Shown here piece after piece: positions 24,087-58,746 of a stretch of DNA of 64,000 nt. The translations under genes and the position numbers were made by a program. The first letter of the stretch is position 1. Each line of letters begins with the position of its first letter. The DNA comes from Escherichia coli (GTDB lineage Bacteria; Pseudomonadota; Gammaproteobacteria; Enterobacterales; Enterobacteriaceae): the NCBI RefSeq assembly GCF_030013595.1, contig NZ_CP122768.1; one strand, given 5' to 3'. The notes below the pieces were generated by a model. That model had not been told where the DNA came from and did no database searches. It saw only the letters and a list, made by a program, of their open reading frames with translations.

Positions 24087-25010
24087 CTAGCGCGTTCGCT
24101 GCGAAAGCACCTGCTGCTTATCCAGCTTTTGCACCAGCGGCTGCACCACTTTATCCCCATGCTGACCAAAGTATTGATACAGCGTATCGGACGCACTTTT
24201 GGTCAGCACCATAATCTCAATGCGTCGGTTGCCCGCGCTTTGCGGATTTTTCGCGTCCAGCAGCATCTGGTCCGCCATCGCGCTTACCTGCATCACTTTA
24301 TCTTCCGGCATTCCGGCCTCTTCCAGCACCCGACGGGCCGAAAGCGCGCGATCGCCCGAAAGGTTCCAGTTGTTGTAGATATTGTTTTTGTAGGCCATCG
24401 CATCGGTATGCCCGGTAATAATAATTTTGTTATCGAGCGAGTCGAACACTGGCGCGAGCTCCACCAGCAAAGTTTTAAAGAACGGCATAATCTGCGCGCT
24501 GCCGCGTTCAAACATATTGCGGTTCTGGTCATCTTTAATCAGCACGCGTAATCCCTGCGGGACAATCTCCATCTCCAGATTCGCTTCCATATGTGCATCA
24601 CGGGCAATGGTGTTGATACTGGTTGCCAACTCGCCAAGCTCGGTGGCGGATTTCTTCTTCAGCAGCGCCGGTTTCTCATTCACATCACGCGCTTTTTTCT
24701 CCGTCTCTTCCGGCACCGCTACGGTGGCAGGTTTTGGCGGATGAGACGGGCTGATTTTATTTAACGGCGACAGCCCACCACCGTTAAAAATCGACTGCCC
24801 GTGCAGCGCGGCGATAATGCTTTCACGCTCGGATTTACTGACGCTGTTGACAATCCACAGCGTCATAAACAGCGCCATCATTGCCAAAGTAAAGTCGGCG
24901 AACGTCACCTTCCGCGCCCCGCCGTGGTGCCCGGCATGATTCTTTTTGATCTGCCGCCGGACGATGGTGGTTTTTGCCCCACGCTCGCGGCGGTTGCCCG
25001 TCTTTCTCAT
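24087..25010 (-). CDS. lafU: lateral-flagellar stator protein MotB-like (OmpA-like C-terminus), intact
   Basis: ORF trimmed to MRKTGNRRERGAKTTIVRRQIKKNHAGHHGGARKVTFADFTLAMMALFMTLW... (MotB N-terminus with TM helix); C-terminal peptidoglycan-binding region; follows the MotA-like gene. Confidence 0.85.
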   Translation of the reverse strand: MRKTGNRRERGAKTTIVRRQIKKNHAGHHGGARKVTFADFTLAMMALFMTLWIVNSVSKSERESIIAALHGQSIFNGGGLSPLNKISPSHPPKPATVAVPEETEKKARDVNEKPALLKKKSATELGELATSINTIARDAHMEANLEMEIVPQGLRVLIKDDQNRNMFERGSAQIMPFFKTLLVELAPVFDSLDNKIIITGHTDAMAYKNNIYNNWNLSGDRALSARRVLEEAGMPEDKVMQVSAMADQMLLDAKNPQSAGNRRIEIMVLTKSASDTLYQYFGQHGDKVVQPLVQKLDKQQVLSQRTR

Positions 25011-25012
25011 GC

Positions 25013-25876
25013 TTATTCTTGCTCCAGCATCGCATTCACCCACGCGTCGAGGTTGGCGAAGGTCGGTTTAGATGCCAGATGCAGCAGCTTACGCCCGGCG
25101 TCCACCGCCAGCAGGGTCGGTTTGCCGCCTGCCTGCGCCACCAGCACGGTGCGCACGCATTCCAGCAAAGAATGTTCCGCCCGTGCCTGTTGTTCCATGG
25201 CGTTGGCAAGCGGGTCCATCAGGCAGTAGCAGATAAAGACGCCTAAAAACGTCCCCACCAGAGCCGCCGCCACTTTCAGGCCAATCAGGGCGATAGATCC
25301 ATCAATCGACTGCATGGTGATGATGATGCCCAGCACCGCCGCGCAAATACCAAATCCCGGCATCGCTTCGGCAGTACGTTGCAGCGAGCGCGACGGCGTT
25401 AACAGGGACTCTTCCGCGGTGTCCAGTTCCTGATCGAGAATGCCTTCCAGTTCGTGGGCGTCGATTTTGCCCATCGCCATCAGGCGAAAGTTATCGGCAA
25501 TAAAGGTCACCAGCCGCTTCTGGGTTAATACCAACGGGTATTTCTGGAAAACGGTGCTATCTTCCGGTTGCTCAATATGCTGATCCAGCATGCGCAGGCC
25601 GCCGTTTTGTACCATTTCAAGCAACTCATACAGGCACATTAATAGCTGACGCTGAAACTCCGGCCCGAGCTGTTTTTTACTGATCACGCCTTTAATTTGA
25701 TGGGCAATCTCTTTCAGCACATGTTTCGGGTTACCAATAATCATCGCCCCAAAACCGGCACCCAAAATAATGATCATCTCCGCCGGTTGCCAGATAGCCA
25801 CTAATTGCCCGCCCGCTTCAAAATAACCGCCAAATACGCAGCCGAGCACCACCAGTAAACCTAATATTTTTTGCAT
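25013..25876 (-). CDS. lafT: lateral-flagellar stator protein MotA-like
   Basis: 287-aa four-TM MotA-type protein ending ...AALVGTFLGVFICYCLMDPLANAM... Confidence 0.85.
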   Translation of the reverse strand: MQKILGLLVVLGCVFGGYFEAGGQLVAIWQPAEMIIILGAGFGAMIIGNPKHVLKEIAHQIKGVISKKQLGPEFQRQLLMCLYELLEMVQNGGLRMLDQHIEQPEDSTVFQKYPLVLTQKRLVTFIADNFRLMAMGKIDAHELEGILDQELDTAEESLLTPSRSLQRTAEAMPGFGICAAVLGIIITMQSIDGSIALIGLKVAAALVGTFLGVFICYCLMDPLANAMEQQARAEHSLLECVRTVLVAQAGGKPTLLAVDAGRKLLHLASKPTFANLDAWVNAMLEQE

Positions 25877-25888
25877 GATTTCTTCACT

Positions 25889-26605
25889 TTAATTCGGATA
25901 GACAAAATCACGAATTTTCTGCGCGATCTGTTTATTCAGTTGACAAATTCGGGCCTCGGTTAGCCCTAATACCAGCGCAATTTCTTTGAGATTCATCTCA
26001 TGCTGGTAATACATGGAGAGGATCAGTTGCTCTTTTTCGCTTAATTGTGAAAGCGCCTGTTGCAACATTTGCTGGGTGACAAACTGATCTTCCAGTTCCC
26101 GGCCAGCAAGCGGAATGCCAGGCCCTTCGCCGTTCAGCAGTTCGTCAAGGCTGGCGAGCGTTTCCGCCCCTTCCAGTTGCTGATATTCGAGATAATCTTC
26201 ATGCGAGATCCCTTCCACGGCCAGTTCTGGCCACTCCGGTTCGTGCCCCAGTTTTTTACGCGTTTCGCGAATCAGGTCTTTCATCTGATGATATTTCTGT
26301 CGCAGCTGGCGCGGTCGCCAGTCGAGAGCGCGCAGCTCATCAAGGATCGCGCCGCGAATACGGTGCACGGCATAGCCGGCAAAACCTTCGTCCGGCAGCC
26401 CGTAGCGGCGAATGGCGTTAAGCAGCCCCATTAACGCCGTTTGTTCCATATCCTGACGGTCAATAATGCAATTACACTGCGGGGCAAGTTGCCGCACCAC
26501 TTTACGCACCAGTGGTAAATAGGCCTGCAAGTAGTGGCTCTCCTGCTGCGGGGTTAATACCGGCGCGGCAGCAAATTCTTCTGACTCGAATACGTCCTGT
26601 AGCAT
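25889..26605 (-). CDS. lafS: sigma-28 (FliA-like) sigma factor of the lateral system
   Basis: 238-aa sigma-70-family protein with region 2 and region 4 HTH (...EIALVLGLTEARICQLNKQ...). Confidence 0.85.
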   Translation of the reverse strand: MLQDVFESEEFAAAPVLTPQQESHYLQAYLPLVRKVVRQLAPQCNCIIDRQDMEQTALMGLLNAIRRYGLPDEGFAGYAVHRIRGAILDELRALDWRPRQLRQKYHQMKDLIRETRKKLGHEPEWPELAVEGISHEDYLEYQQLEGAETLASLDELLNGEGPGIPLAGRELEDQFVTQQMLQQALSQLSEKEQLILSMYYQHEMNLKEIALVLGLTEARICQLNKQIAQKIRDFVYPN

Positions 26606-26624
26606 GTTTATATCCGCCTGGTGA

Positions 26625-27092
26625 TTACTGGAAGACCACTTTTTTCACCAGCAAATCCTTATACGGTGCGCTCATTTTGCGACGTTGAAGATCTTTCTTT
26701 AACGCATCCGAAATCAGTTTGCGGATGGCAGATATTTTCATGCCGCGCAAATCTTCAAATTTCATTTCCGTCAGGCATTCAACCGCAATACTTTGATACA
26801 GCGGCTCCTGATGTTTTATTTTTTCCGCTTCTTTGTCACTGGCAACCACCATCACTAATTCCGCCGACAAATAATGGTCCGCGCCGTTGTTGTCATGCAG
26901 CGTGACAATGGTTTCCGGCAACGTCACAAACACGCTTTTGCTTTCATCCAGGGTTTCCACCGTTTCCGTCTGCGCGGCGGCAGTCGGTTTTCCTTTTCCG
27001 GCATAATGATGCCAGACACCCCATCCAGCTCCGACCCCCACCACCAACGCCAGAACGGCGCTGACCACGCCCGCCACCACGATTTTCTTCAT
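26625..27092 (-). CDS. lafF: FliL-like flagellar basal body-associated protein
   Basis: 155-aa protein with a single N-terminal TM segment, FliL-like. Confidence 0.75.
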   Translation of the reverse strand: MKKIVVAGVVSAVLALVVGVGAGWGVWHHYAGKGKPTAAAQTETVETLDESKSVFVTLPETIVTLHDNNGADHYLSAELVMVVASDKEAEKIKHQEPLYQSIAVECLTEMKFEDLRGMKISAIRKLISDALKKDLQRRKMSAPYKDLLVKKVVFQ

Positions 27093-28888: not shown

Positions 28889-30205
28889 TTACGCGAATGC
28901 CGCCATGCTGGCTTTCATGGTGTACACCTCGACCAGCGTGTTGGTGTACTCCTCGAGATAACGGTCGTAGTTGGCGTTATAGGTATCAGTAAGCTGATCG
29001 CCTTCGTCCTGAATTTTGCTCATCTGATCGTCAATGTTCTGCTGGCGCAGGGTGATGATGCCGTTGCTGGAGTCCGTGTAGGTGTTAATCAGGTCGTCCA
29101 TCTGCGCTACCATGCTGTTGTCGCCAACGAAAATAGAGGTCAGACCGTCAGGATTTTTCGCCATTTCGTCGTTGAACTGGTCGGAGTCAATCTGTAAGTG
29201 GCCGTGAGAATCGAGGGTGATGCCATAGTCAACAATCGACACGCCGTTGTAGCTGGCATGGGCGATGTCATCGAGCTGGTTCGCCAGTGAACTGAGTCCG
29301 GCGTCGCCTGCAAATACCCCGGCGCTGGTACTGTCATCACCGTGAGTGGTTAGCGAATCAACCGTATCGATCAGGGTGTTATAGGCATCGACAAAGGTCT
29401 GCACTTTCTCCTGGCTGGCGCTGGAATCTTCGCTAATGTTAAAGGTAGTGAGGTCGCTGTCAGAATCGCTGACTTCGGTGAAAGTCATGGTGACGCCGGG
29501 GATCACATCATCAAACGTATTGCTGCTGTTGGTGATCTCAGGCCCCGTGGCGCTGCCAAGATGAATAATCGCGTCCTGAGCGGAGGAAACATCCGTGGCA
29601 ACGGGCGCGCTGGTGCTATCGTTGCTGCCGTCATGCCCCGTTACGCTCACCGAAAATGCGCTCTGCGCCCCGGTGCTATCGGAGGTGAGCATAATCGTGG
29701 TGGTGCCGTCGGTTTTTACCAGTGCCGCCGACACGCCCGGATTGTCATCAGAGTCGTTAATCGCATTCACCAGCTCGCTGGCGTCGATAAAACCGTCGCC
29801 GTCACCGTTCTGATCTGCCGCCGACAGATCAATATCCATGGTGCTGTCGCCCATCGTCAGTTCAAAAGTGCCGGTGGCGGAAAAGGTGTCGTCGCCCATA
29901 CTGAACGTGGTTTGCTGCCCCTGCGCCAGTTGCTCAACGAAAAACGAGTAGCTTCCCGCCTGTGCCTGCGAGTTAGCAGAAACGGTCGCCGAGTCATTAT
30001 TGCTGGTGGCGGCAAAAGTCACCGGGCCGTCGGTATCGCTGTTCAGCGCGTCAACGGCGCTCTGAAAATCGCTTAACGCCGAGCTGAGCGAGTCCAGGCC
30101 GCTGCTTTCAGCGTCCAGCTCGGTCTGCTTCTCCTGCAAATTTGCCGCCTGGGTGGCGACATCCGCATAAGCAATTTCTTGCGCAATGGTTCTTGGGTTA
30201 ATCAT
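28889..30205 (-). CDS. lafB: FliD-like filament cap protein
   Basis: 438-aa Ser/Thr/Asp-rich axial protein with cap-like terminal heptads. Confidence 0.8.
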   Translation of the reverse strand: MINPRTIAQEIAYADVATQAANLQEKQTELDAESSGLDSLSSALSDFQSAVDALNSDTDGPVTFAATSNNDSATVSANSQAQAGSYSFFVEQLAQGQQTTFSMGDDTFSATGTFELTMGDSTMDIDLSAADQNGDGDGFIDASELVNAINDSDDNPGVSAALVKTDGTTTIMLTSDSTGAQSAFSVSVTGHDGSNDSTSAPVATDVSSAQDAIIHLGSATGPEITNSSNTFDDVIPGVTMTFTEVSDSDSDLTTFNISEDSSASQEKVQTFVDAYNTLIDTVDSLTTHGDDSTSAGVFAGDAGLSSLANQLDDIAHASYNGVSIVDYGITLDSHGHLQIDSDQFNDEMAKNPDGLTSIFVGDNSMVAQMDDLINTYTDSSNGIITLRQQNIDDQMSKIQDEGDQLTDTYNANYDRYLEEYTNTLVEVYTMKASMAAFA

Positions 30206-30495: not shown

Positions 30496-31410
30496 TTACT
30501 GCAGCAGGCTGGAAACCATGCTGGACATGCTGTTGGACTGTTTCAGCATGGTGATGCCGGTCTGCATCAGCACCTGCTGTTTGGTCATGTTGGACGCTTC
30601 CGTCGCGTAGTCGGTATCCATGATGTTACCGATAGCAACTTCGGTGTTGTCCTGCATGCTGGTCAGGTTATTAGCCGTGTCGTTCAGACGGTTGATAGAC
30701 GCACCCAGTTTGGACTGGATCTGAGACACGTCATCCATCGCGGTAGAGATGCTGGTGATCATCTGGTTAGCCGAGCCAGACGCAGTCAGCTCAGTACCGC
30801 CAGAAACGCCTGCGGTGCCCGTGGTGTCAGCCTGATCCGCACTAAAGGAGTTGCTGATAGCAGAAAGATCAGTCACCAGGGTATTCAGCTGGCTTGAAAT
30901 ATTCACGGTCATGGTGTCGGAAGATTCCGCGCCCACCTGGAAAGTTACCGCGCTCTGGAACAGACCGTCAGTACCGGTGTTGCTGGTGCCGGAAACACCG
31001 AACAGGTTGGTGCCGCCGTAAGTGGTGTTTTGCAGCATGTCAGACATCTGCTGGCCCAGTTCGTCGTATTCGTCCTGCATCGCCTGCAGGTCGTCGTCGC
31101 TGTAGGTGCCGTTCGCTGCCTGAGTTGACAGGTCTTTCATACGACCCAGCACGTCAGACATTTCGTCGAACATGCTGTCAGCGGTTTGCAGCATCGCGGT
31201 GGCATCATTGATGTTGCTCAGCGCAACACCCATACCGCTGGACTGTGCTGTCAGACGGTTAGCAATTTGTTTGCCTGCGGCGTCATCGGCAGAAGAGTTA
31301 ATCCGGTTACCCGTTGCCAGGCGTTCCATAGATGTAGACAGAGAAGAGCTGCTTTTGCTGATTGCATTAACGGCGGCCATTGAGGCGTTATTGGTGTTAA
31401 TAGATAACAT
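30496..31410 (-). CDS. lafA: lateral flagellin
   Basis: ORF trimmed to MLSINTNNASMAAVNAISKSSSSLSTSMERLATGNRINSSADDAAGKQIANRL... (flagellin N-terminus) with C-terminal ...QTGITMLKQSNSMSSMVSSLLQ; AAGGA 8 nt upstream of ATG 31410. Confidence 0.9.
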   Translation of the reverse strand: MLSINTNNASMAAVNAISKSSSSLSTSMERLATGNRINSSADDAAGKQIANRLTAQSSGMGVALSNINDATAMLQTADSMFDEMSDVLGRMKDLSTQAANGTYSDDDLQAMQDEYDELGQQMSDMLQNTTYGGTNLFGVSGTSNTGTDGLFQSAVTFQVGAESSDTMTVNISSQLNTLVTDLSAISNSFSADQADTTGTAGVSGGTELTASGSANQMITSISTAMDDVSQIQSKLGASINRLNDTANNLTSMQDNTEVAIGNIMDTDYATEASNMTKQQVLMQTGITMLKQSNSMSSMVSSLLQ

Positions 31411-34729: not shown

Positions 34730-36106
34730 TTAGCTGCACATTTCCAGCACCGAATCGAAAATCTCGGCCCCGGCGGAAATGACTTTCAGATTGGCTTCAT
34801 AAATTTGTTGATAGGTGATCAGGTTAACCGCCTCTTCGTCCATGCTGACGCCGCTGACGCTGCTCTGCTGGTTTTGCGCTGCGGAATAGACATTGGACGC
34901 GGCATCGACTTCCGTCTGGTTTTGCTGGCTGTAAATGCCGATATTGCTGATGATTGACGAGCACGCCTGCCCGACCGTCACGCTGCCGAGGTTGGCTATC
35001 TCCAGCGGTTCGGTGGAGATATTGATCAGCGCCTGTAAGTTGTCGCTGTTACCGCTTTCGTCCGGTGAACTGGAAAACGCCAGCTCATCGGCGGTGATAT
35101 CCGGGTTGACGGTCAGCGGGCCATCGGCGTTGCTGGCGTCATAAATAAACAGCGGCTCGCCGGGGTTGCCGTTGAGATCGTAGCCCTGCGCCAGTTGATT
35201 GTTGACCGCATCGGCAAACTGCGACGCCATGCTGTTGATGGTGTCGGTCAGCGGCGTCAGCACGTCGTTTTGATAATCAAACAGTGCGCCTAATGAACCT
35301 CCAGTGTCGGTGGTCATCGTCGAGGTGGTTCCGGCGAAGGTCAGCGACATGGTCGGCGTGCCGTCGGCGTTGGTTTCCAGCGCGATGGTCGAGCTTTGCT
35401 GCCCGCTCACCAGCGGTTGACCGTTTTTCAGGGTAACGTTGTAGTTGCCCTGGTCGTCGATATTGACCTGCACATCCATCATCCCGCTGAGTTCTTCCAC
35501 CATCTGGTCGCGGGCGTCGTACAGCGCGGAGGCGTTATCGCCGTTGGCTTCGGCCTGAGCGATTTGCTGGTTATAGCTGGCGATGCCGCTGGTGAGCGTG
35601 TTGATTTGCGACACCATCGCCTGCTGCTGGCTGATGATTTCCGTGCTTTGCGAGTCGATGTAATCCAGCGTGTTGTCGATACGCAGCGACAGCGCCCCGG
35701 CTTCGCTGATCACCTGTTCGCGCAGGGCGGAATCGTCAGGGCTGGTGGTCGCTTCGTTAAGGGCGGCGAAGAAGTTATCGAACCCGCCGCTCAGGCTGCT
35801 GTTATCGTCGCTCAGTACCGCTTCCAGTTGCGTGAGATACCCCTGCTGGGTGCTGTAATAGCCGTAATCGCTGGCGGCATACCACACCTGATTCACCTGA
35901 TACTGGTTAGAGACGCGGCGAATGCTGTCGACCTGCACGCCGTTACCGGCGCTGTTCGGCGAACCACCGCTGGCACCGATGGTGCTGATTTCTGCCACCT
36001 GACGGGTGTAGCCCGTAGTCATGGCGTTGGCGGTGTTTTGCGCCGTGACGTTCAGCTCCACCTGCGCGGTTGATGCGCCGCTGTAGCCGATGTTAATCAT
36101 GTCCAT
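34730..36106 (-). CDS. lfgK: FlgK-like hook-associated protein (HAP1)
   Basis: 458 aa, ...NTANAMTTGYTRQ... N-terminus and ...YQQIYEANLKVISAGAEIFDSVLEM C-terminus. Confidence 0.85.
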   Translation of the reverse strand: MDMINIGYSGASTAQVELNVTAQNTANAMTTGYTRQVAEISTIGASGGSPNSAGNGVQVDSIRRVSNQYQVNQVWYAASDYGYYSTQQGYLTQLEAVLSDDNSSLSGGFDNFFAALNEATTSPDDSALREQVISEAGALSLRIDNTLDYIDSQSTEIISQQQAMVSQINTLTSGIASYNQQIAQAEANGDNASALYDARDQMVEELSGMMDVQVNIDDQGNYNVTLKNGQPLVSGQQSSTIALETNADGTPTMSLTFAGTTSTMTTDTGGSLGALFDYQNDVLTPLTDTINSMASQFADAVNNQLAQGYDLNGNPGEPLFIYDASNADGPLTVNPDITADELAFSSSPDESGNSDNLQALINISTEPLEIANLGSVTVGQACSSIISNIGIYSQQNQTEVDAASNVYSAAQNQQSSVSGVSMDEEAVNLITYQQIYEANLKVISAGAEIFDSVLEMCS

Positions 36107-36182
36107 GTTGGATCCTTACCGGTAAATCGTGCCGGTTAAAAGCGGCGTGAAGATGGGGATTCTTAAGTGGATAATGGTGCGC

Positions 36183-36298
36183 GCTGATGCCCTCACCCCG
36201 GCCCTCTCCCACAGGGAGAGGGAGAAAACCTGCGCCATATTCACCTCCGCGCTCAATCGGTCCCCTCGCCCCTTTGGGGAGAGGGTTAGGGTGAGGGG
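36183..36298. repeat. GC-rich composite palindromic intergenic repeat (Box C-like class; name uncertain), copy A
   Basis: ccctcaccccggccctctcccacagggagaggg ... cccctcgcccctttggggagagggttagggtgaggg; inverted relative to copies at 38461 and 48730. Confidence 0.7.
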
Positions 36299-36311
36299 CA
36301 AAGCGCGCCCC

Positions 36312-36611
36312 TCATTTCCCCTTCGGCGACAACTGCTTCACAATCATCGCCGCGATCCCAATCCCGTGCTGCTGCGCCAGGGTGTTACACAACTCATCGT
36401 CATAAAACCCCTGCATCATGCGCACCGAATCGCTGTTAAACGGGTTATCTTTCGAATCGAACAACTCGTTGGTTTTGCGCATCTCTTTGAGCATATTGCG
36501 TAAAAAAATCGCCTCAAACTGTTCGGCGGCCTGCCTGATATCATTGGCCTGAACCTTCGGCCCCATTAACGCATCGCTGCCGTCAATCCCGCCGCTGCCG
36601 TTAACTTTCAT
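36312..36611 (-). CDS. lfgJ: FlgJ-like rod-binding domain protein, no muramidase domain
   Basis: 99-aa protein ...QFEAIFLRNMLKEMRKT...DSVRMMQGFYDDELCNTLAQQHGIGIA matching only the FlgJ N-terminal rod-binding domain. Confidence 0.75.
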   Translation of the reverse strand: MKVNGSGGIDGSDALMGPKVQANDIRQAAEQFEAIFLRNMLKEMRKTNELFDSKDNPFNSDSVRMMQGFYDDELCNTLAQQHGIGIAAMIVKQLSPKGK

Positions 36612-38391: not shown

Positions 38392-38460
38392 GTTCTGCCT
38401 GTTTAGTGTTGCAGGCCACGGGGTGGCCGTTTTTTTGGTGGGTGCGGAGCCGATTTGTTC

Positions 38461-38576
38461 CCCTCACCCTAACCCTCTCCCCAAAGGGGCGAGGGGACCG
38501 ATCGAGCACAATGTTGCATACAGCGCCGGTCTGCTCCCTCTCCCTGTGGGAGAGGGCCGGGGTGAGGGCATCAGAC
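38461..38576. repeat. GC-rich composite palindromic intergenic repeat, copy B
   Basis: ccctcaccctaaccctctccccaaaggggcgaggggacc ... ctccctctccctgtgggagagggccggggtgaggg; reverse complement of copy A. Confidence 0.7.
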
Positions 38577-38596
38577 CGCACGTTGCCCCCACGCCC

Positions 38597-39382
38597 TTAC
38601 AGCGTCTGGCTGATGTACTGCAACATATCGTCCGCTGCCGACACCATTTTGGCGTTCATCTCGTACGCGCGTTGCACCGTAATCATCGCCACCATTTCGT
38701 TGACGATATCCACGTTCGAGCCTTCCAGTGCGTTGTCCTGCAAAGTGCCAAGCCCATCTTCGCCCGGCACACCTTCTGTCGGCTGACCGCTGGCGGCGGT
38801 TTCCAGATAGAGGTTGTCACCCTCGGCGGAAAGCCCCGCCGGGTTAGCGAAGTTAACCAGCGTCAGTTGCCCTAACTCGGTCACGTCGCTGTCGCCAGGT
38901 AAGATCGCCGTCACCGTGCCGTCCTCACCAAAAGCAACATTAGTCGCCCCCGCCGGAACGTCGATTTCCGGTTGTAACGGCAAGCCCTGCGAGTTGGTCA
39001 GCACGCCGTCGGCGTTCACCTGCAAGTTGCCGTCGCGGGTATAGGCGATATCGCCGTTGGCCTTTTGCACCTGTAAAAATCCCTGCCCCATAATGGCGAC
39101 ATTCATCGCGTTGTCGGTGGTTTCAACGTTGCCTTCGGTGAAGGTTTTCTGGGTGCCGACAATGCGCACGCCGCTACCGAATTGCAGCCCGGTCGGCATG
39201 ATGTTGTTCTGGTCGAGCATCGCGCCCGGCGCTTCCTGGGTCTGGTAGAACAGATCCTGAAACATCACCCGGTCGCGCTTGAAGCCGGTGGTGTTAACGT
39301 TGGCGATGTTGTTGGCAATCGCGCTCATTTCAGCATCCTGCGCCGAGAGGCCGGTTTTGCTGATCCATAGTGCTGCGTTCAT
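38597..39382 (-). CDS. lfgG: FlgG-like distal rod protein
   Basis: 261 aa, MNAALWISKTGLSAQDAEMSAIANNIANVNTTGFKRDR... and ...ITVQRAYEMNAKMVSAADDMLQ. Confidence 0.88.
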   Translation of the reverse strand: MNAALWISKTGLSAQDAEMSAIANNIANVNTTGFKRDRVMFQDLFYQTQEAPGAMLDQNNIMPTGLQFGSGVRIVGTQKTFTEGNVETTDNAMNVAIMGQGFLQVQKANGDIAYTRDGNLQVNADGVLTNSQGLPLQPEIDVPAGATNVAFGEDGTVTAILPGDSDVTELGQLTLVNFANPAGLSAEGDNLYLETAASGQPTEGVPGEDGLGTLQDNALEGSNVDIVNEMVAMITVQRAYEMNAKMVSAADDMLQYISQTL

Positions 39383-42684: not shown

Positions 42685-43020
42685 TTATTTCCCTTCAATG
42701 GCCTCTCTGATGCCGCTGATTTGCAGATTCAGAAAGGTCAGACTGCTTTGATAATCCATACTATTTTGTGAAAACCGCGCCTGTTCACTGTTCAGCTCCA
42801 CGGTGTTGCCATCTTCCGACGGCTGCATCGGCACGCGGTACTGGACATCCACCGCCGCGTTATTTGCCCGTTGCATCTCCCTGGCAAAATCAATATCTTT
42901 AGCCTTGAAATTTGGCGTATCGACGTTCGCCAGATTCGCAGTCAGTAGCTCGGTCCTCTCAAGACGTAACTTCACTGCCTGCGGATGCACTCCCAATGCT
43001 TGTTGAAAACTGATCCCCAT
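42685..43020 (-). CDS. lfgB: FlgB-like rod protein (start moved downstream of the sigma-54 promoter)
   Basis: MGISFQQALGVHPQAVKLRLERTELLTANLANVDTPNFKAKDIDF... FlgB-like; the upstream ATG at 43050 lies inside the predicted promoter-to-start-site interval, so ATG 43020 (GGAG upstream) is preferred. Confidence 0.75.
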   Translation of the reverse strand: MGISFQQALGVHPQAVKLRLERTELLTANLANVDTPNFKAKDIDFAREMQRANNAAVDVQYRVPMQPSEDGNTVELNSEQARFSQNSMDYQSSLTFLNLQISGIREAIEGK

Positions 43021-43101: not shown

Positions 43102-43839
43102 ATGAGTTTTCAATTTTGCAGGCGGAAGTTTTATTTCCTCCTGGCGCTGACCTTACCGGGCTACGCCGCCGTCCACCCCGTGCAACACAGCGCGCGGGAA
43201 CAAGTCAACGCCCAGGTACTGAATGCCGCGAGCCAGGAAATTGAATCGCTGGCGCAACAGCGGCGCTGGCATGACTATCGCTACACCTTTAAGGTCTATA
43301 TTCCCTCGCAGATTGCGACCGCCGCCCCCTGTGCGACTACACCCGGCGTCACGCTCACTTCGCCTGCGGAAATCACCCTCAACCGGATGAACTTCACCGT
43401 CAGTTGCCCGCAAAGCTGGCAGATGAACGTGGCGGTGCGCCCGGATGTTCTGGTGCCGGTGGTAATGGCGAAGTCACTGGTTGCCCGCGACACGCCGCTC
43501 ACGGCAAATGATGTGGAGTTGAAGCCCTACAACGTCAGCGCCCAGCGCCGCAATGTGTTGATGGATCCCGATGACGCGATTGGTTTCAGCAGTAAACACG
43601 CGCTGCAACCGGGCAGGCCCATCACCAAAGAAGAGCTGGTTTCGCCAGTGCTGGTCGAACGCGATCAGCCGGTGATGATTGTTTACCAGAGCGCGGGGAT
43701 CACCGCCTCGATGCCCGGCGTGGCGCTGAAAAATGGTCGCAAAGGCGAGATGGTGAAAGTGCGTAACGCCAGCAGCCAGCGGGTCATCAGCGCGATGGTG
43801 GCGGAAAGCGGCGTGGTAACAACGGTAAGCGCGGAGTAA
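43102..43839 (+). CDS. lfgA: FlgA-like P-ring assembly chaperone
   Basis: ORF trimmed to MSFQFCRRKFYFLLALTLPGYAAV signal peptide; divergent from lfgB. Confidence 0.75.
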   Translation: MSFQFCRRKFYFLLALTLPGYAAVHPVQHSAREQVNAQVLNAASQEIESLAQQRRWHDYRYTFKVYIPSQIATAAPCATTPGVTLTSPAEITLNRMNFTVSCPQSWQMNVAVRPDVLVPVVMAKSLVARDTPLTANDVELKPYNVSAQRRNVLMDPDDAIGFSSKHALQPGRPITKEELVSPVLVERDQPVMIVYQSAGITASMPGVALKNGRKGEMVKVRNASSQRVISAMVAESGVVTTVSAE

Positions 43840-44026
43840 TTTGCTGTAATACCGCGTAGCATATGTATGACTAGCTCCCAATATTCTGACTTTCTGACAA
43901 ATTTCATTGTGTATTTTGGATAATTATTGAGCACTCAATCACTACTGTTTAAATATCCAGATGATAACTATTTCATCTGGGTCAAATGAGTGATATTGTA
44001 TCACCAATAAGACCTACGGGGGTGCT

Positions 44027-45451
44027 ATGTCTGAATTTGAATTGCTCGTGAAAGATCTTCTTTTAAAATCAGAAGAAGACGAGAAAAAGCGACAAGAAAA
44101 AGATCGAGAATTAATTTCAAAGGTTCTTGAAATCTATGATCAAAAATATGTTGCAGAACTCCTACGAAAAGTAGGAAAAAATGAATGGAGCAGAGAAACA
44201 CTTAACCGTTGGATAAATGGTAAGTGTAACCCTAAACAATTAACTTCTGCTGAGGAAACTTTACTTCGAAAGATGCTTCCAGAACCTCCCGAACATCATC
44301 CTAACTATACATTTCGTTTTATTGATTTATTCGCAGGGATTGGTGGTATTCGTAAAGGCTTCGAAAATATTGGTGGGCAGTGTGTTTTTACTAGCGAATG
44401 GAATAAAGAAGCGGTAAGAACCTACAAAGCTAATTGGTTTAATGATGAACTAAATCATAAATTTAATCTTGATATACGAGAAGTCACTTTAAGTGATAGA
44501 GATGATGTTTCCGAAATGGAAGCCTATAATCATATAGACAAAAATATTCCAGATCATGATGTCCTTCTGGCCGGTTTTCCATGTCAGCCCTTTAGTCTGG
44601 CTGGGGTAAGCAAGAAAAATTCTCTGGGGCGTGCACATGGTTTTGAATGTGAGGCACAAGGAACACTATTTTTTGATGTCGCTCGAATTATTAAATCAAA
44701 AAAACCAGCTATTTTTGTGCTTGAGAATGTGAAGAACCTTAAAAGTCATGATAAAGGTAAGACTTTTAAAGTCATCATGGAAACACTCAATGAATTAGGG
44801 TATGAAGTCGCCGATGCTGGTGTGACTGGCTCAGATGATCCTAAAATTATAGATGGAAAACATTTTTTACCCCAACATCGTGAGCGTATAGTGTTGGTAG
44901 GATTTCGTAGGGATCTAAATATTCACAAGGATTTCACGTTACGAAATATTAACCGCTTTTACCCTCAAAACAGGCCAACATTTGGTGAATTATTAGATCA
45001 TGATGTTGACGACAAATATATTTTGACTCCAAGGTTATGGGAATATCTTTACAATTATGCAAAAAAACATGCAGCAAAAGGAAATGGATTTGGTTTTGGT
45101 TTAGTGGATCCTAAAAATCCAGATAGTATCGCACGAACGCTGTCTGCTCGTTACCATAAAGATGGCTCTGAAATACTGATCGATCGTGGCTGGGATAAGG
45201 CTGTCGGTGAAATCGATTTTAGTAATCCAGCGAATCAAGAGAATCGACCAAGAAGACTGACACCTCATGAATGTGCCAGGTTAATGGGTTTTGAAAAACC
45301 AGGGGGAAGACCTTTTAGAATACCTGTATCAGATACTCAAGCTTATAGACAATTTGGGAACTCAGTTGTTGTGCCAGTATTTGAAGCTGTAGCAAGATTA
45401 CTAGAACCGTACATACAAAAGGCTGTCAGCATGCAAGTTATTAACGATTAA
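44027..45451 (+). CDS. DNA (cytosine-5)-methyltransferase, Dcm/M.EcoRII-like (predicted CCWGG specificity)
   Basis: 474 aa with motifs [15 protein letters not shown] (I), [10 protein letters not shown] (IV), ENVKNL (VI), [10 protein letters not shown] (X); collinear with E. coli Dcm as recalled; ACGGGGG RBS; AT-rich compared with flanking flagellar genes. Confidence 0.85.
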
Positions 45452-45474
45452 TAATAATTAACTTTCACTATTGT

Positions 45475-45498
45475 GAGGCCTTTTTTATTAAAGGCCTC
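45475..45498. terminator. bidirectional hairpin between the convergent methyltransferase and endonuclease genes
   Basis: gaggccttttttattaaaggcctc perfect stem-loop in the 87-bp convergent intergenic region. Confidence 0.6.
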
Positions 45499-45538
45499 TA
45501 AATATATAATCATAAGTTATTATAAGTATACTTTTATA

Positions 45539-46744
45539 TTATATAAAATCTTCATACAGCGTTATTAACTGTGTGATAAAACCCTCTAACGTTAATAATC
45601 CATCCCTGATTTCCTCCGGATATTTTTTATGAAGAGGGGAAGGTACAACCAAGGTGACACCTTCAGCTCTCATTTCGTTAAATTGAGCAACTGAGACACC
45701 CTCTTGTAAGGTAAACAAATATATTTTGTTGATTTTATTTGCTTCATTGAGTGCCTGACGCCACCGATCCTTACATGTTGTTTTTACAGCAAGCATACGG
45801 AGTTTTTCTCTTGGAAAGTGATCATCATGGTAAGCTGCCGCTGATGGAAAAAGAAAATCGGGTTTCTTTTTTCCTTCAGTAATACATTGAGTAGCAAAAT
45901 GATGCAGTCCATGCTCAATAAAAATTTGCTCAAGATGTAGCTCCAGTGATTTCCCGGCTCGAGATTTTCTTCGATTACTAACAGAGTTAGCCATAGCTAT
46001 AAAATCATCTACAGAACCAAACCCTTGACGGATGATGTCCAGTACGTGAATTTCTTCAACCATTAGAAAGAGATCATATTCAATACGGCGGCGTTCTAAA
46101 AGTTGGTCATCTGGACTGGTTACGCCTGTTGGGTAATAACCCGCAGCATATTGAATAATCTCTAAGCCAGAAGGAAAGCTATGTTTCCAGCTTTCCGGAA
46201 TAACATATTCCTTTTGAGAGATTTTTGGCCTTGATGCGAGTACACCAAGTATTTCACTGGCAGGCCCAAACATTAAAGTTCCAGGAATGATCTCCCCAAT
46301 AGCTGATTCCAGTACATCCTCTTCTTCTGGGCTAACACAAACCCATACATCAACACTTTTGCTGTCTCTCCCTGGCTCATGTTCAAACGCAAGCACAGAC
46401 AAAGCACCTGTATTTTCCGGATCCTGTAGGGGACTGCCAGCCCCCCACCGAGTGATGCGTTTTTCATTTCTTGTTTGCCCGAAATACTTATTATTGTAGT
46501 AAATAGCGCGAACCTCACTGTCTACACATTCATGAGAGGAATAAGTTGCGCGCAATAAAACCGAAGGATTTTTTTCTGACGTATGATCTATAGATGGGAA
46601 AAGTTCAGCGACGATACCAGAAGGGATATATACCCCCACTTGATGCCCTCCTGTTGCACCAGTGTCGTTTGCTGAAAGACGTTTAATATAGAGATAGTTG
46701 TTACCACCGACCTTATCAAGCAGCCAATCTTGTAATCCTGACAT
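45539..46744 (-). CDS. type II restriction endonuclease, EcoRII-like
   Basis: 401 aa; N-terminal ...YIKRLSANDTGATGGHQVGVYIPSGIV... and overall collinearity with R.EcoRII as recalled; convergent partner of a Dcm-like methylase. Confidence 0.65.
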   Translation of the reverse strand: MSGLQDWLLDKVGGNNYLYIKRLSANDTGATGGHQVGVYIPSGIVAELFPSIDHTSEKNPSVLLRATYSSHECVDSEVRAIYYNNKYFGQTRNEKRITRWGAGSPLQDPENTGALSVLAFEHEPGRDSKSVDVWVCVSPEEEDVLESAIGEIIPGTLMFGPASEILGVLASRPKISQKEYVIPESWKHSFPSGLEIIQYAAGYYPTGVTSPDDQLLERRRIEYDLFLMVEEIHVLDIIRQGFGSVDDFIAMANSVSNRRKSRAGKSLELHLEQIFIEHGLHHFATQCITEGKKKPDFLFPSAAAYHDDHFPREKLRMLAVKTTCKDRWRQALNEANKINKIYLFTLQEGVSVAQFNEMRAEGVTLVVPSPLHKKYPEEIRDGLLTLEGFITQLITLYEDFI

Positions 46745-46797
46745 AAGACATCCTTATTTTTGCATAGTATCCGATTCAGATTTTTCCACATATCCAT

Positions 46798-46831
46798 CAG
46801 AACGACCAGAACGACCAGAACGACCAGAACC
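46798..46831. repeat. tandem 9-bp repeat (CAGAACGAC, three full copies plus one partial) in the endonuclease/lfgM divergent region
   Basis: cag-aacgaccag-aacgaccag-aacgaccag-aacc read directly, 54-87 bp upstream of the endonuclease ATG. Confidence 0.9.
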
Positions 46832-46934
46832 AACATATCTGAACAAAAAGTAAATATGCGATAACGATTAAAGTTTTGCCGCCTGTTAACCGCTTTACCG
46901 GAGTAACCCACCTAAATACCGAGACGAGGTTGCG

Positions 46935-47210
46935 ATGAAAATCACCCCGACTATGCCAGGCAATCGCCCGACAGTCACAACGGCAGGCTCCAGCCAGCCG
47001 CGCAAAGGCACGGCGACCACCACGACGCTAAGCGCCGACGACATTACCCAGGCGGGATTGCAGTCTGCCCAGCAAACACTGAACGACCAGCAAGAGAGCG
47101 ATATCGACAGCGATAAAGTGGCGCAAATGCAGGCGATGCTGGCCTCCGGCAGCCTGCAAGTGGACACCGAACAGTTAGCCAGCGACATGCTGAGTTTTTT
47201 CCAGAACTAA
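46935..47210 (+). CDS. lfgM: FlgM-like anti-sigma-28 factor
   Basis: 91 aa; C-terminal ...VAQMQAMLASGSLQVDTEQLASDMLSFFQN matches the FlgM sigma-28-binding region; GAGG RBS. Confidence 0.8.
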   Translation: MKITPTMPGNRPTVTTAGSSQPRKGTATTTTLSADDITQAGLQSAQQTLNDQQESDIDSDKVAQMQAMLASGSLQVDTEQLASDMLSFFQN

Positions 47211-47222
47211 GAGGCCGATGAA

Positions 47223-47651
47223 GTGAGTATCAGGTTACAACAGGTGAAGGCGTTGTTGCAGGGAATTCGTGACGATGACGCGCTGTATGATTCCCTGCGC
47301 GAACTTCTCCAGCGCCAGCGGATCTGCATGATTCGCCGCGCCAGCGAAGAGCTGCTGGCGGTAAACGAGGAGATAACCCATCACTATGAGCAGTTGCATG
47401 GGCATAGCCATCAGCGACACAGCCTGCTGAAAATGCTCGGTGTTAGCGTAAATCGTGACGGTCTGGCGCAGGTATTTGCCTGGCTTCCGGCGGTACAAAA
47501 AGCGGCAGCACAACAGTTGTGGCAACGCCTTGAGCAAAAAGCGGAACGCTGCAAAGCCTACAACGACAAAAACGGCGAGCAGTTGATTCGCCAGTATGAA
47601 TTTATTCAGTCTTTTTTAGGCAGCGAAGCGGATTTTCTGTACCAGGAATAA
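47223..47651 (+). CDS. lfgN: FlgN-like chaperone
   Basis: 142-aa helical protein starting at GTG 47223 with AGAGG upstream; follows lfgM as in flgM-flgN pairs. Confidence 0.7.
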   Translation: MSIRLQQVKALLQGIRDDDALYDSLRELLQRQRICMIRRASEELLAVNEEITHHYEQLHGHSHQRHSLLKMLGVSVNRDGLAQVFAWLPAVQKAAAQQLWQRLEQKAERCKAYNDKNGEQLIRQYEFIQSFLGSEADFLYQE

Positions 47652-47778
47652 CGACCATTCCTTCCCCCATCGCGGAAACGGATTTTCCGCCTGATTCACA
47701 ATCCTTTGTTTTTGATTATAAAAAATCACGGCACGCTTATTGCACATTCCGCAAAGTAATAAAGACTGGAAGCCACCT

Positions 47779-48609
47779 ATGAGTTTTATTGAATGTTACG
47801 AACCGGAATACGTGCGCAATTTTATGACGCAATATCCCGATTCGCCTTTGTACATCCGCAAGGTGTGGAAAAACGAGATTCGCCTGAGCCTGATGCTGAC
47901 AGAGCCAGAAAGTTGCGAAGCGGTGCTCAACGATGCCAGGGCCTTTGATTTACAGCTCACCTACCGCCCGGCGGAAGAAAATGCCGCAGAGCTTTCCGCG
48001 CGCGATGCGATAGTAAACCAGGTCATTTTGAGTACCCTCACGCTCCCCGATTTAACCCCAGAGCTTTCACTATATGCCATCGGGATTTTACTCTCCCGCG
48101 CCAGCAAAATGCCGGGCAGAGACGGAGATATTCTTGCCCGTTTGACGACGCTGCCGCAGGCGCTGGCCGATCATGCGAAAAAAGGCACGCTACAGGCACA
48201 GTTCGCCCAACTTCCGCCCGTGCCACAGCTGGCGCGTCACCTGGCCACGCTACTCGGGAGTTTTACGTTTGACTGGTCGATTTTGCCGGAAAGCCCGCGC
48301 AAAACTTCGCTGCCGTTGCAGATGCCTTTGCTGGCGCTACATGACGCCAACAGCGAAGCCCTGGTGCAACAGCAGCTTCAGGCTCAGTGGCAAACCACCT
48401 GGCAACAGCATTTTGCCACCGCGCCCTGGATGATGCGTAACTGGCTGATTTACCGCGTTTACCATGAGGTGATTGGACAGGCAGACGGAGCAGATTATTG
48501 CCCGCTGGTGTGCGATTTTTATCTTATCCGCACGTTAATCAGTTTTATGGACGCTGGATGGTTCTCCGCTGCGACAGGAGGATATTTTCGCCCTTTTTGC
48601 GGTGTTTGA
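47779..48609 (+). CDS. hypothetical protein in the Flag-2 variable region
   Basis: ORF 47740..48609 begins at a TTG; first ATG with GGAAG RBS is 47779 (MSFIECYEPEYVRNF...); no recognisable domain. Confidence 0.55.
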   Translation: MSFIECYEPEYVRNFMTQYPDSPLYIRKVWKNEIRLSLMLTEPESCEAVLNDARAFDLQLTYRPAEENAAELSARDAIVNQVILSTLTLPDLTPELSLYAIGILLSRASKMPGRDGDILARLTTLPQALADHAKKGTLQAQFAQLPPVPQLARHLATLLGSFTFDWSILPESPRKTSLPLQMPLLALHDANSEALVQQQLQAQWQTTWQQHFATAPWMMRNWLIYRVYHEVIGQADGADYCPLVCDFYLIRTLISFMDAGWFSAATGGYFRPFCGV

Positions 48610-48729
48610 ACGCTGGCGAGAGAGTGAAAATGCGCTGTTTATTCGCCAGCAAATTCAGTCGTTATGTGCGGCAGAGCCGCTGCTTTCAGCATTTTCGCTG
48701 CTGACGTGAGTCGCTCTGTGCGCGCTTTT

Positions 48730-48845
48730 CCCCTCACCCTAACCCTCTCCCCAAAGGGGCGAGGGAACCGATCGAGCACGGTGTTAAAATCGGCGCTGGT
48801 TTTCTCCCCTCTCCCTGTGGGAGAGGGTCGGGGTGAGGGCATCAG
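48730..48845. repeat. GC-rich composite palindromic intergenic repeat, copy C
   Basis: ccctcaccctaaccctctccccaaaggggcgagggaacc ... cccctctccctgtgggagagggtcggggtgaggg, same orientation as copy B. Confidence 0.7.
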
Positions 48846-48888
48846 CACGCACATTCATCACATTCACCCCTTAACTCACCCAGACACC

Positions 48889-58374: not shown

Positions 58375-58526
58375 AGGGTGAACGATATAAGTAGCGACAA
58401 TAATCAGGATGTTCTGAAGCGTATCACCGGCGGGATTAACAAGTTCGAATTAAACGATAATAAAAATATTATTTGATGGTAAACAATGAGTTAGATATTA
58501 ATACTGTTAATTTGGACATCTGTGAT

Positions 58527-58567
58527 GCCCCCTCACCCTAACCCTCTCCCCGGATGGGGCGAGGGGA
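58527..58567. repeat. partial copy (one arm) of the GC-rich palindromic repeat, copy D
   Basis: ccctcaccctaaccctctccccggatggggcgaggggaca in the lafK-lfiM divergent intergenic region. Confidence 0.65.
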
Positions 58568-58746
58568 CAGACCGCAGACTGATTGGCGAAAATCACTCCC
58601 ATTAAGCAATTAATCGATTAATTATTTTTTCATCCTATTAATAATTTGCCCCTTTCACTCCCCCTCTATTTAATACCTCACCTTGTGTCACTGCCGGATT
58701 TGCGTGCACAAAATCGCCCATACCATTACAGCAGAGAAAGTAAGCC

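Follow-up and report, generated by a model that had tools for sequence, protein, structure and literature searches.

How can lfgM, the anti-sigma factor gene of a lateral flagellar (Flag-2) locus, be expressed in an Escherichia coli strain in which restriction–modification (R-M) genes have come to lie between it and lfgA? The window analyzed here, a stretch of 64,000 nucleotides, comprises a complete E. coli Flag-2 locus, whose gene order was mapped from the annotation of a 99.6% identical genome. On the minus strand lie lafU, lafT and lafS (24087–26605), lafB (28889–30205), lafA (30496–31410), lfgK (34730–36106) and lfgB (42685–43020). On the plus strand lie lfgA (43102–43839; Pfam FlgA), lfgM (46935–47210; a 91-aa product, Pfam FlgM, E = 6e-10) and the export chaperone gene lfgN (47223–47651; Pfam FlgN, E = 1e-18), the latter two also identified by the RefSeq annotation of that genome. 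Salmonella has two sources of flgM transcript, read-through from flgA and a dedicated sigma-28-type promoter, an arrangement that establishes negative feedback on the sigma factor, and a sigma-28-type late promoter ahead of the anti-sigma gene is to be expected of a flagellar system. The first-pass annotation recognized an R-M insertion here: the genes for a Dcm-type methylase (44027–45451, plus strand; Pfam DNA_methylase) and an EcoRII-type endonuclease (45539–46744, minus strand; Pfam EcoRII-N and EcoRII-C) separate lfgM from lfgA. That annotation held that the insertion obliges lfgM to have a promoter of its own, and pointed to a perfect sigma-28 −35-like octamer about 60 bp upstream that seemed to lack a matching −10 element.

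The octamer is indeed present: TAAAGTTT occupies 46869–46876 on the plus strand, 58 nt upstream of the lfgM ATG (46935), and agrees at all eight positions with the E. coli FliA −35 consensus, TAAAG(TTT). By itself, it is not beyond chance. Five exact copies occur in the window against 1.69 expected, a count reached by 9 of 100 shuffles, and the remaining four copies all lie away from flagellar promoter positions. The FliA −10 consensus GCCGATAA, with up to one mismatch allowed, has 87 matches in the window and is too common to be informative. The significance of the lfgM element therefore derives from its conservation and its paired −10 box, not from the octamer. At the 11-nt spacing of FliA promoters, the octamer downstream is AACCGCTT (46888–46895), which agrees with GCCGATAA at one of eight positions, so the reported −10 mismatch is real, even though the sequence then given for it (aaccgctt) was read one base out of register. 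At a 12-nt spacing the octamer becomes ACCGCTTT (46889–46896), which agrees at four of eight positions, with the CG present and a C in place of the A.

We consider it likely that 46868–46897 constitutes a bipartite late (class 3) promoter of lfgMN, TTAAAGTTT-N12-ACCGCTTTA, recognized by the RNA polymerase holoenzyme of the lateral sigma factor LafS. Its predicted −35 element, TTAAAGTTT (46868–46876, plus strand), stands out in sequence and alignment, with about 1.5 bits per position compared with about 0.5 in the flanks. The 12-nt spacer (46877–46888) is unconserved except for its leading T, at 0.49 bits per position. The predicted −10 element, ACCGCTTTA (46889–46897), follows the consensus G(C/T)CG(C/T)TTT(T)A, with C46891 and G46892 invariant and T46894 conserved in at least 90% of sites, and the same box is found upstream of lafA and lfgK. 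In kind, it would be a commonplace late promoter of a flagellar gene, set apart by its variant −10 consensus.

LafS holoenzyme would bind this bipartite element and initiate near 46902–46906, a start region predicted by applying to ACCGCTTT the numbering of the Pseudomonas aeruginosa sigma-28 open complex, in which GCCGATAA spans −15 to −8 (PMC12784957). It is thereby assumed that the −10 box stands in the same register to the melted or flipped base as in the FliA structures. An AGTAAC/ATAACA motif is conserved across orthologues at the predicted start region. The transcript would carry a leader of about 30 nt, whose predicted folding gave no significant RNA structure (z = −1.0), and within it a ribosome-binding region, GACGAGGTTGCG (46923–46934, plus strand), with GAGG at 46926–46929; in the alignment, the ACGAGGTTG ribosome site is kept from Escherichia to Citrobacter and Phytobacter. 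The transcript would encode LfgM and LfgN, the predicted promoter thus serving an operon at 46935–47651 (plus strand). By analogy with flgM in Salmonella and E. coli, we infer that LfgM made from this promoter would feed back on LafS once hook–basal bodies are complete and LfgM is exported.

The comparative evidence comes from Flag-2 loci of one genome per species, fetched with an LfgI probe, in which lfgM, lafA and lfgK were placed by tblastn. Two boxes at fixed spacing, amid diverged surroundings, precede late genes in Escherichia spp., Pseudocitrobacter, Citrobacter spp., Phytobacter, Enterobacter, Leminorella and Rahnella. The tblastn search found no LfgM match in the Rahnella locus, and its boxes are those of lafA and lfgK only. 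Upstream of lfgM itself, the pattern T(T/A)AAGTTT-N12-(G/A)(C/T)CG(C/T)TTT, again with diverging flanks, occurs in Escherichia, Pseudocitrobacter, Citrobacter, Phytobacter, Enterobacter, Leminorella and Rosenbergiella, and Tatumella carries the variant CTTAATTTA-N-GTCGTTATA. Rosenbergiella and Tatumella share a related variant, CTTAATTTC-N12-GTCGTTGTA at lfgM and CTTTATTTT...GTCGTTATTA at lafA. The spacer measures 12 nt in 23 of the 25 lfgM orthologue sites and 11 nt in the other two. Information content reaches 1.2–1.55 bits per position in the boxes and 0.4–0.7 in the flanks and spacer, box values that are inflated by the selection of sites with a regular expression. As a control, 14 lfgM upstream regions from seven genera were aligned with MAFFT in an unbiased manner. 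Ahead of the ribosome site and start codon, this alignment leaves no invariant columns other than T46869, A46871, A46872, T46875, T46877, C46891 and G46892, all within or adjoining the two boxes. The first-pass annotation had left two options for the mismatch: a lateral sigma factor with a different −10, or no promoter at this place. The comparison disfavors the latter, and the lateral sigma factor does appear to use a different −10, (G/A)(C/T)CG(C/T)TTT at a 12-nt spacer.

The pattern recurs at other late operons. Inspection of the sequence ahead of the expected late genes lfgM, lafA and lfgK revealed it in all three, in the form TTAAG(N3)-N12-G(C/T)CG(C/T)TTT at lafA and lfgK. The predicted promoter of the flagellin gene lafA (31484–31453, minus strand) consists of TTAAGTTT (31482–31475), an 11-nt spacer and GTCGTTTT (31463–31456); that of lfgK, which encodes a hook-associated protein (36168–36136, minus strand), of TTAAGAAT (36166–36159), a 12-nt spacer and GCCGCTTT (36146–36139), where lfgM has TAAAGTTT, 12 nt and ACCGCTTT. 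Both the lafA and lfgK sites are conserved in orthologues, and the motif always has the orientation of its downstream gene, usually about 55–120 nt before the start codon of a late gene. Half-site position weight matrices (PWMs) built from non-Escherichia sites only, with spacers of 11–13 nt allowed, were then scanned over both strands of the window. The three sites took the top ranks, with lfgK at 28.2, lafA at 23.7 and lfgM at 22.3 bits; the fourth score, 16.9 bits, fell in AT-rich cassette DNA. Maxima in 100 random 64-kb sequences averaged 14.7 ± 2.5 bits, the highest being 22.7. Since the training sites are orthologues of the sites being scored, these high scores partly reflect common descent. 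A PWM from the lfgM orthologues alone placed lafA and lfgK at ranks 2 and 3. One from the lafA and lfgK sites alone placed the lfgM site only fourth, at 16.1 bits, inside the range of the random maxima. Of the three E. coli sites, that of lfgM is thus the weakest: it has TAAAG (as in Citrobacter) versus the TTAAG of lafA and lfgK and an A versus a G at the first −10 position, and its assignment rests mainly on orthologous conservation.

The age of this promoter can be read from genomes with and without the R-M genes. A 5.4-kb query around the lfgM region matches 1279 of 5426 complete E. coli genomes. Pfam matches and a junction alignment against cassette-free genomes delimit a cassette of about 3.0 kb (43845–46859), which sits just beyond the end of lfgA, at its stop codon, between two imperfect direct repeats, AGTAATTTGC (43835–43844) and AGTAAATATGC (46849–46859). 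Its GC content is 34–44% compared with 52–60% in the flanking flagellar genes, and its right edge lies 8 nt upstream of the −35 box. Of the 1278 Flag-2 E. coli genomes with a match to the region upstream of lfgM, 28 possess the cassette; in the others, the match begins at 46849 or 46865. In the two cassette-free genomes compared, 80 bp separate the end of lfgA from lfgM, and the spacer reads TAATTTGCGC(T/A)(A/G)(A/G)CGATTAAAGTTTTGCCGCCTGTTAACCGCTTTAC. The block from GATTAAAG through CCGCTTTAC is identical in the window and in the cassette-free genomes, with variation on both sides. As TTAAAGTTT-N12-ACCGCTTTA is present in the lfgA–lfgM spacer of the sampled cassette-free E. coli (about 1250 of the 1278 genomes lack the cassette) and is conserved in other genera, the predicted lfgM promoter is ancestral and older than the cassette. 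The earlier argument that the insertion made an own promoter necessary is not supported, given that the same element exists where there is no cassette. A 401-aa EcoRII and a 474-aa Dcm have been described in the Flag-2 loci of 21 Escherichia strains (PMC6993521); these are the same two genes, and to that description the present analysis adds the insertion site and promoter context, from the lfgA stop codon to 8 nt short of the lfgM −35 box.

What the cassette probably did change is the supply from lfgA. Between the convergent methylase and endonuclease genes lies a hairpin with a 9-bp stem, GAGGCCTTT-N6-AAAGGCCTC (45475–45498); the 111-nt stretch folds at −22 kcal/mol (z = −4.7), and none of 200 shuffles folds as well. 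It is possibly a bidirectional terminator of the cassette; the hairpin has no clear U-tract, and a simple terminator scan did not call it. The hairpin and the convergent transcription together make read-through from lfgA unlikely, and a block of lfgA-to-lfgM read-through in this strain is plausible. In cassette-free strains, lfgM may also receive lfgA read-through. Here that supply was probably cut. The predicted LafS promoter was left intact, the cassette having inserted 8 nt ahead of it, and lfgM probably depends on this promoter for most or all of its expression. The answer suggested for the opening question is thus an ancestral promoter of lfgM's own, still intact after an R-M insertion that probably severed read-through from lfgA.

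The cassette has features of its own. Escherichia sp. MOD1-EC7003 (L009, 1300–4400) harbors a derivative in which the 474-aa methylase gene is kept as an orphan and no endonuclease ORF of at least 70 aa remains in the lfgA–lfgM interval. We considered an independent insertion in that strain and rejected it, as the insert is the same cassette minus the endonuclease gene. The upstream sequence there, ...aaaaccgaaggaCGATTAAAGTTT, points to a deletion whose end lies 3 nt short of the lfgM −35 box, with the promoter again spared. In the window, a perfect 9-bp tandem repeat, CAGAACGAC, present 3.7 times at 46798–46830, separates the start codon of the endonuclease gene from the lfgM promoter. The spans that include this repeat are 18 bp shorter in other genomes with the cassette, a difference, placed to within those spans, that is consistent with two fewer units; the repeat looks like a variable-number repeat upstream of the endonuclease gene. 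On the strand of that gene the unit reads GTCGTTCTG and resembles the LafS −10 box, and the PWM scan gave no match of at least 10 bits at the repeat.

Could the lfgM element instead be a canonical promoter of FliA, the sigma-28 of the primary (Flag-1) flagellar system, or a point of cross-talk at which the perfect TAAAGTTT recruits that factor to lfgM? The −35 box, with its eight of eight matches and its TAAAG unlike the TTAAG of lafA and lfgK, would suit such a reading. The −10 box, however, lacks the CGA core and the A at −11, the base that is flipped in sigma-28 complexes (PMC12784957), and its agreement with GCCGATAA amounts to one position at spacer 11 and four at spacer 12. What the genera have in common at this box is GYCGYTTT rather than GCCGATAA. 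An exact GCCGATAA stands at the expected place upstream of E. coli fliA, so the host has kept this consensus elsewhere. We regard a FliA promoter at lfgM as highly unlikely. When the FliA consensus was scanned across the entire window at spacers of 10–12, no Flag-2 intergenic region yielded a convincing canonical site. That TAAAGTTT stands upstream of lfgM by accident and has no function is the least credible reading of all: the octamer count alone would allow it, but neither the element nor its partner box varies among genera in which the surrounding sequence has been randomized, and both recur at two other late operons.

It is also quite improbable, in our estimation, that the conserved blocks serve to bind a regulator (e.g., LafK or LafZ) or represent some other conserved element, with lfgM transcribed by read-through from lfgA or from an unrecognized promoter. 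The spacer string CCGCCTG, which also adjoins candidate LafK upstream sites at lafB and at the methylase gene downstream of lfgN, invites this idea. Yet that string is not conserved in lfgM orthologues, and the inverted repeat CGGAAA-N5/6-TTTCCG that accompanies sigma-54 promoters is absent at lfgM. Two short boxes at a fixed distance of 12 ± 1 nt around a free spacer are the architecture of a sigma-70-family promoter, and a regulator site would agree poorly with boxes always oriented with the downstream gene at their usual distance from a late start codon. A read-through transcript in this strain would moreover face 3 kb of foreign DNA as well as a strong hairpin and a gene in convergent orientation. 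As for other promoter types, the 190 nt upstream of lfgM (46745–46934, plus strand) contain no GG-N10-GC, the core of a LafK-activated class 2 sigma-54 promoter (TGGCAC-N5-TTGC), which excludes a promoter of that type, and a consensus scan of 43700–47300 found no plus-strand sigma-70 site (TTGACA-N16-18-TATAAT-like) within 46745–46934. We retain the LafS-dependent promoter as the preferred reading.

Sigma-54 promoters do occur elsewhere in the locus. Near-perfect matches to (T/C)GGCA(C/T)-N5-TTGC precede lafB (30252–30237, minus strand), lfgB (43072–43057, minus strand) and a lysine-N-methylase gene (47729–47744, plus strand), and a fourth sigma-54-type site lies inside lafS (26120–26105, minus strand), about 230 nt before lafT. 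The CGGAAA-N5/6-TTTCCG inverted repeats upstream of the lafB and lysine-N-methylase promoters are candidate LafK binding sites. The CCGCCTG string in the lfgM spacer was examined as a LafK upstream site and rejected, being unconserved in orthologues and lacking an inverted-repeat partner.

What, then, would read the variant −10 box? LafS (25889–26605, minus strand), the presumed reader, is a FliA/WhiG-family sigma factor by RefSeq annotation and by a clade-specific residue pattern, and its gene is the only sigma gene of the locus. Its best matches among solved structures are the FliA proteins of P. aeruginosa and E. coli (E of about 1e-31). LafS-dependent late genes are known in Vibrio, Aeromonas and Plesiomonas. 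In Plesiomonas shigelloides, deletion of fliA_L lowers expression of fliC_L, flgMN_L, flgKL_L and the fliD–lafTU cluster (PMC11242183), the first three of which are the counterparts of the three motif-bearing units here.

Structures of sigma-28 RNA polymerase provide a frame for the comparison of LafS with FliA. In the P. aeruginosa open complex, A−11 is flipped out, stacks on Y76 and touches the D66 backbone; R80 contacts G−12, D87 contacts C−13/G−12 and R97 contacts the G/C pair of the extended −10; H100, R101 and R104 act on the template strand near −11 and −12; and S224 and Q228 contact the −35 box (PMC12784957). We aligned 15 LafS sequences with three FliA sequences, using the P. aeruginosa numbering. 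R97, D87, R80, R82, D93 and Q228 are invariant among the 15, and the position of the stacking aromatic Y76 holds Y or F. D66 is replaced by G and R101 by Q in all 15, R104 by H in 14 of 15, and S224 by A or P, and the specificity loop is shorter by one residue. All 15 LafS proteins thus keep the residues that contact G−15/C−14 and C−13/G−12. LafS promoters, as predicted here, share the G-CG core of FliA promoters, followed by a pyrimidine and a T-run instead of ATAA, with a spacer one base longer; it is this pyrimidine and T-run after the CG, together with the longer spacer, that would make the FliA consensus fail at lfgM. There is a correlation between the two comparisons: the shared G-CG matches the conserved contacts, and the differences from −11 onward and at the second base of the −35 match the substituted residues.

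The pattern extends beyond the enterobacteria. In beta-proteobacteria (Aquincola, Ideonella, Comamonas, Craterilacuibacter, Parazoarcus and Methyloversatilis), TTTAAGNN-N12-GTCGC(C/T) lies upstream of lfgK and/or lafA homologues, and the same pattern is present ahead of the lfgK homologue in Pseudomonas otitidis. The top 120 matches of the LafS homologue search comprised Enterobacterales alone, and Vibrio is represented by a single chromosome 2 of Vibrio campbellii. There, the motif TTAAT(N3)-N12-(G/A)(C/T)CGCCT is found at lafA (TTAATCAT, 12 nt, ACCGCCTC), flgM_L (TTAATGTT, 12 nt, GTCGCCTA) and flgK_L (TTAATCCC, 12 nt, GTCGCCTC), and differs from the TTAAG...GYCGYTTT of enterobacterial sites. 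The LafS late-promoter consensus derived from these comparisons is TTAA(G/T)N3-N12-(G/A)(C/T)CG(C/T)(C/T)T. The lfgM site conforms to it in the bipartite 12 ± 1 nt spacing, the orientation toward a late gene, the conservation across genera and the recurrence at lafA and lfgK. A full-text literature search, whose range did not extend to the older Vibrio and Aeromonas papers, found no stated consensus for the lateral sigma-28; those papers may or may not already have printed a LafS-type consensus and its contrast with FliA.

These observations raise the prospect, which we advance tentatively and as a little less than an even bet, that the LafS-type factors of lateral or secondary flagellar systems, across a range that runs from Vibrio through the Enterobacterales as far as beta-proteobacteria, represent a promoter-specificity class of their own within the sigma-28 family. 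Such factors would keep G-CG, take a pyrimidine and a T-rich run in place of A−11 and TAA, prefer a TTAAG −35 and use a spacer one base longer, a shift that would be tied to D66G, the shorter specificity loop, R101Q, R104H and, in region 4.2, S224A. If so, the two flagellar regulons would be insulated from each other in cells that possess both systems. If the −10 difference holds at the step of base flipping, it would represent a natural case of two sigma-28 paralogues in one cell separated by promoter specificity, of interest both for the study of sigma-factor recognition and for orthogonal transcription parts. The LafS-type consensus is in any event concrete and testable, and would allow the LafS regulon to be annotated in Flag-2 loci, where FliA-based scans come up empty.

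The predicted lfgM promoter is best appreciated beside its known relatives. Like the class 3 flgM promoter of Flag-1 in Salmonella and E. coli, it is a late promoter directly upstream of an anti-sigma gene and downstream of flgA/lfgA. The Flag-1 promoter, by contrast, resides inside the flgA coding region and reads TAAAGTTT-N11-GCCGATAA, whereas the lfgM promoter lies, in the cassette-free layout, in the 80-bp lfgA–lfgM spacer, has a 12-nt spacing and the −10 element ACCGCTTTA, and is presumably read by LafS. With the lateral systems of Vibrio parahaemolyticus, Aeromonas hydrophila and P. shigelloides, it shares the gene set of flagellin, flgMN_L and flgKL_L, which is FliA_L-dependent in Plesiomonas (PMC11242183). 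Relative to the sigma-28 RNA polymerase structures of P. aeruginosa and E. coli (9WSM, 6PMI), the likeness lies in the G-CG core at G−15 and C−13/G−12 and in the conserved LafS equivalents of R97, D87, R80 and Y76. The lfgM box differs in having a pyrimidine where alignment with −11 would place the flipped A, and TTT for TAA; LafS itself differs in that D66, R101, R104 and S224 are replaced by G, Q, H and A, respectively, and in its shorter specificity loop.

Several further observations concern the wider locus and its relatives. Upstream of the V. campbellii lafB homologue (L079, 8100–8345), a LafS-type motif, TAAATCTT-N12-GTCGCCTT, is accompanied by a sigma-54 promoter, GGCAC-N5-TTGC, whereas the E. 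coli lafB region has the sigma-54 promoter only; the wiring of late operons may differ between the Vibrio and E. coli lineages. Many 400-aa E. coli proteins in the databases fuse a FliL (LafF) domain to a LafS that is 98–100% identical to that of the window, where lafF and lafS (25889–27092) are separate genes in different frames, with a TAA and 19 nt between them; such joined proteins may exist as true variants or may stem from errors in gene calling. Downstream of lfgN, the lysine-N-methylase-like gene (47779–48709) measures 931 nt and is a frameshifted pseudogene in the annotation of the 99.6% identical genome, and cassette-free strains have an intact 930-nt ORF. Finally, a GC-rich imperfect-palindrome repeat, ...CCCTCACCCTAACCCTCTCCCC...GGGGAGAGGG...GGGTGAGGG..., occupies four intergenic regions of the locus, at about 36107–36312 (lfgJ–lfgK), 38392–38597 (lfgG–lfgH), 48709–48870 (methylase–glycosyltransferase) and 58500–58620 (lafK–lfiM), and looks like a chromosomal intergenic repeat family.
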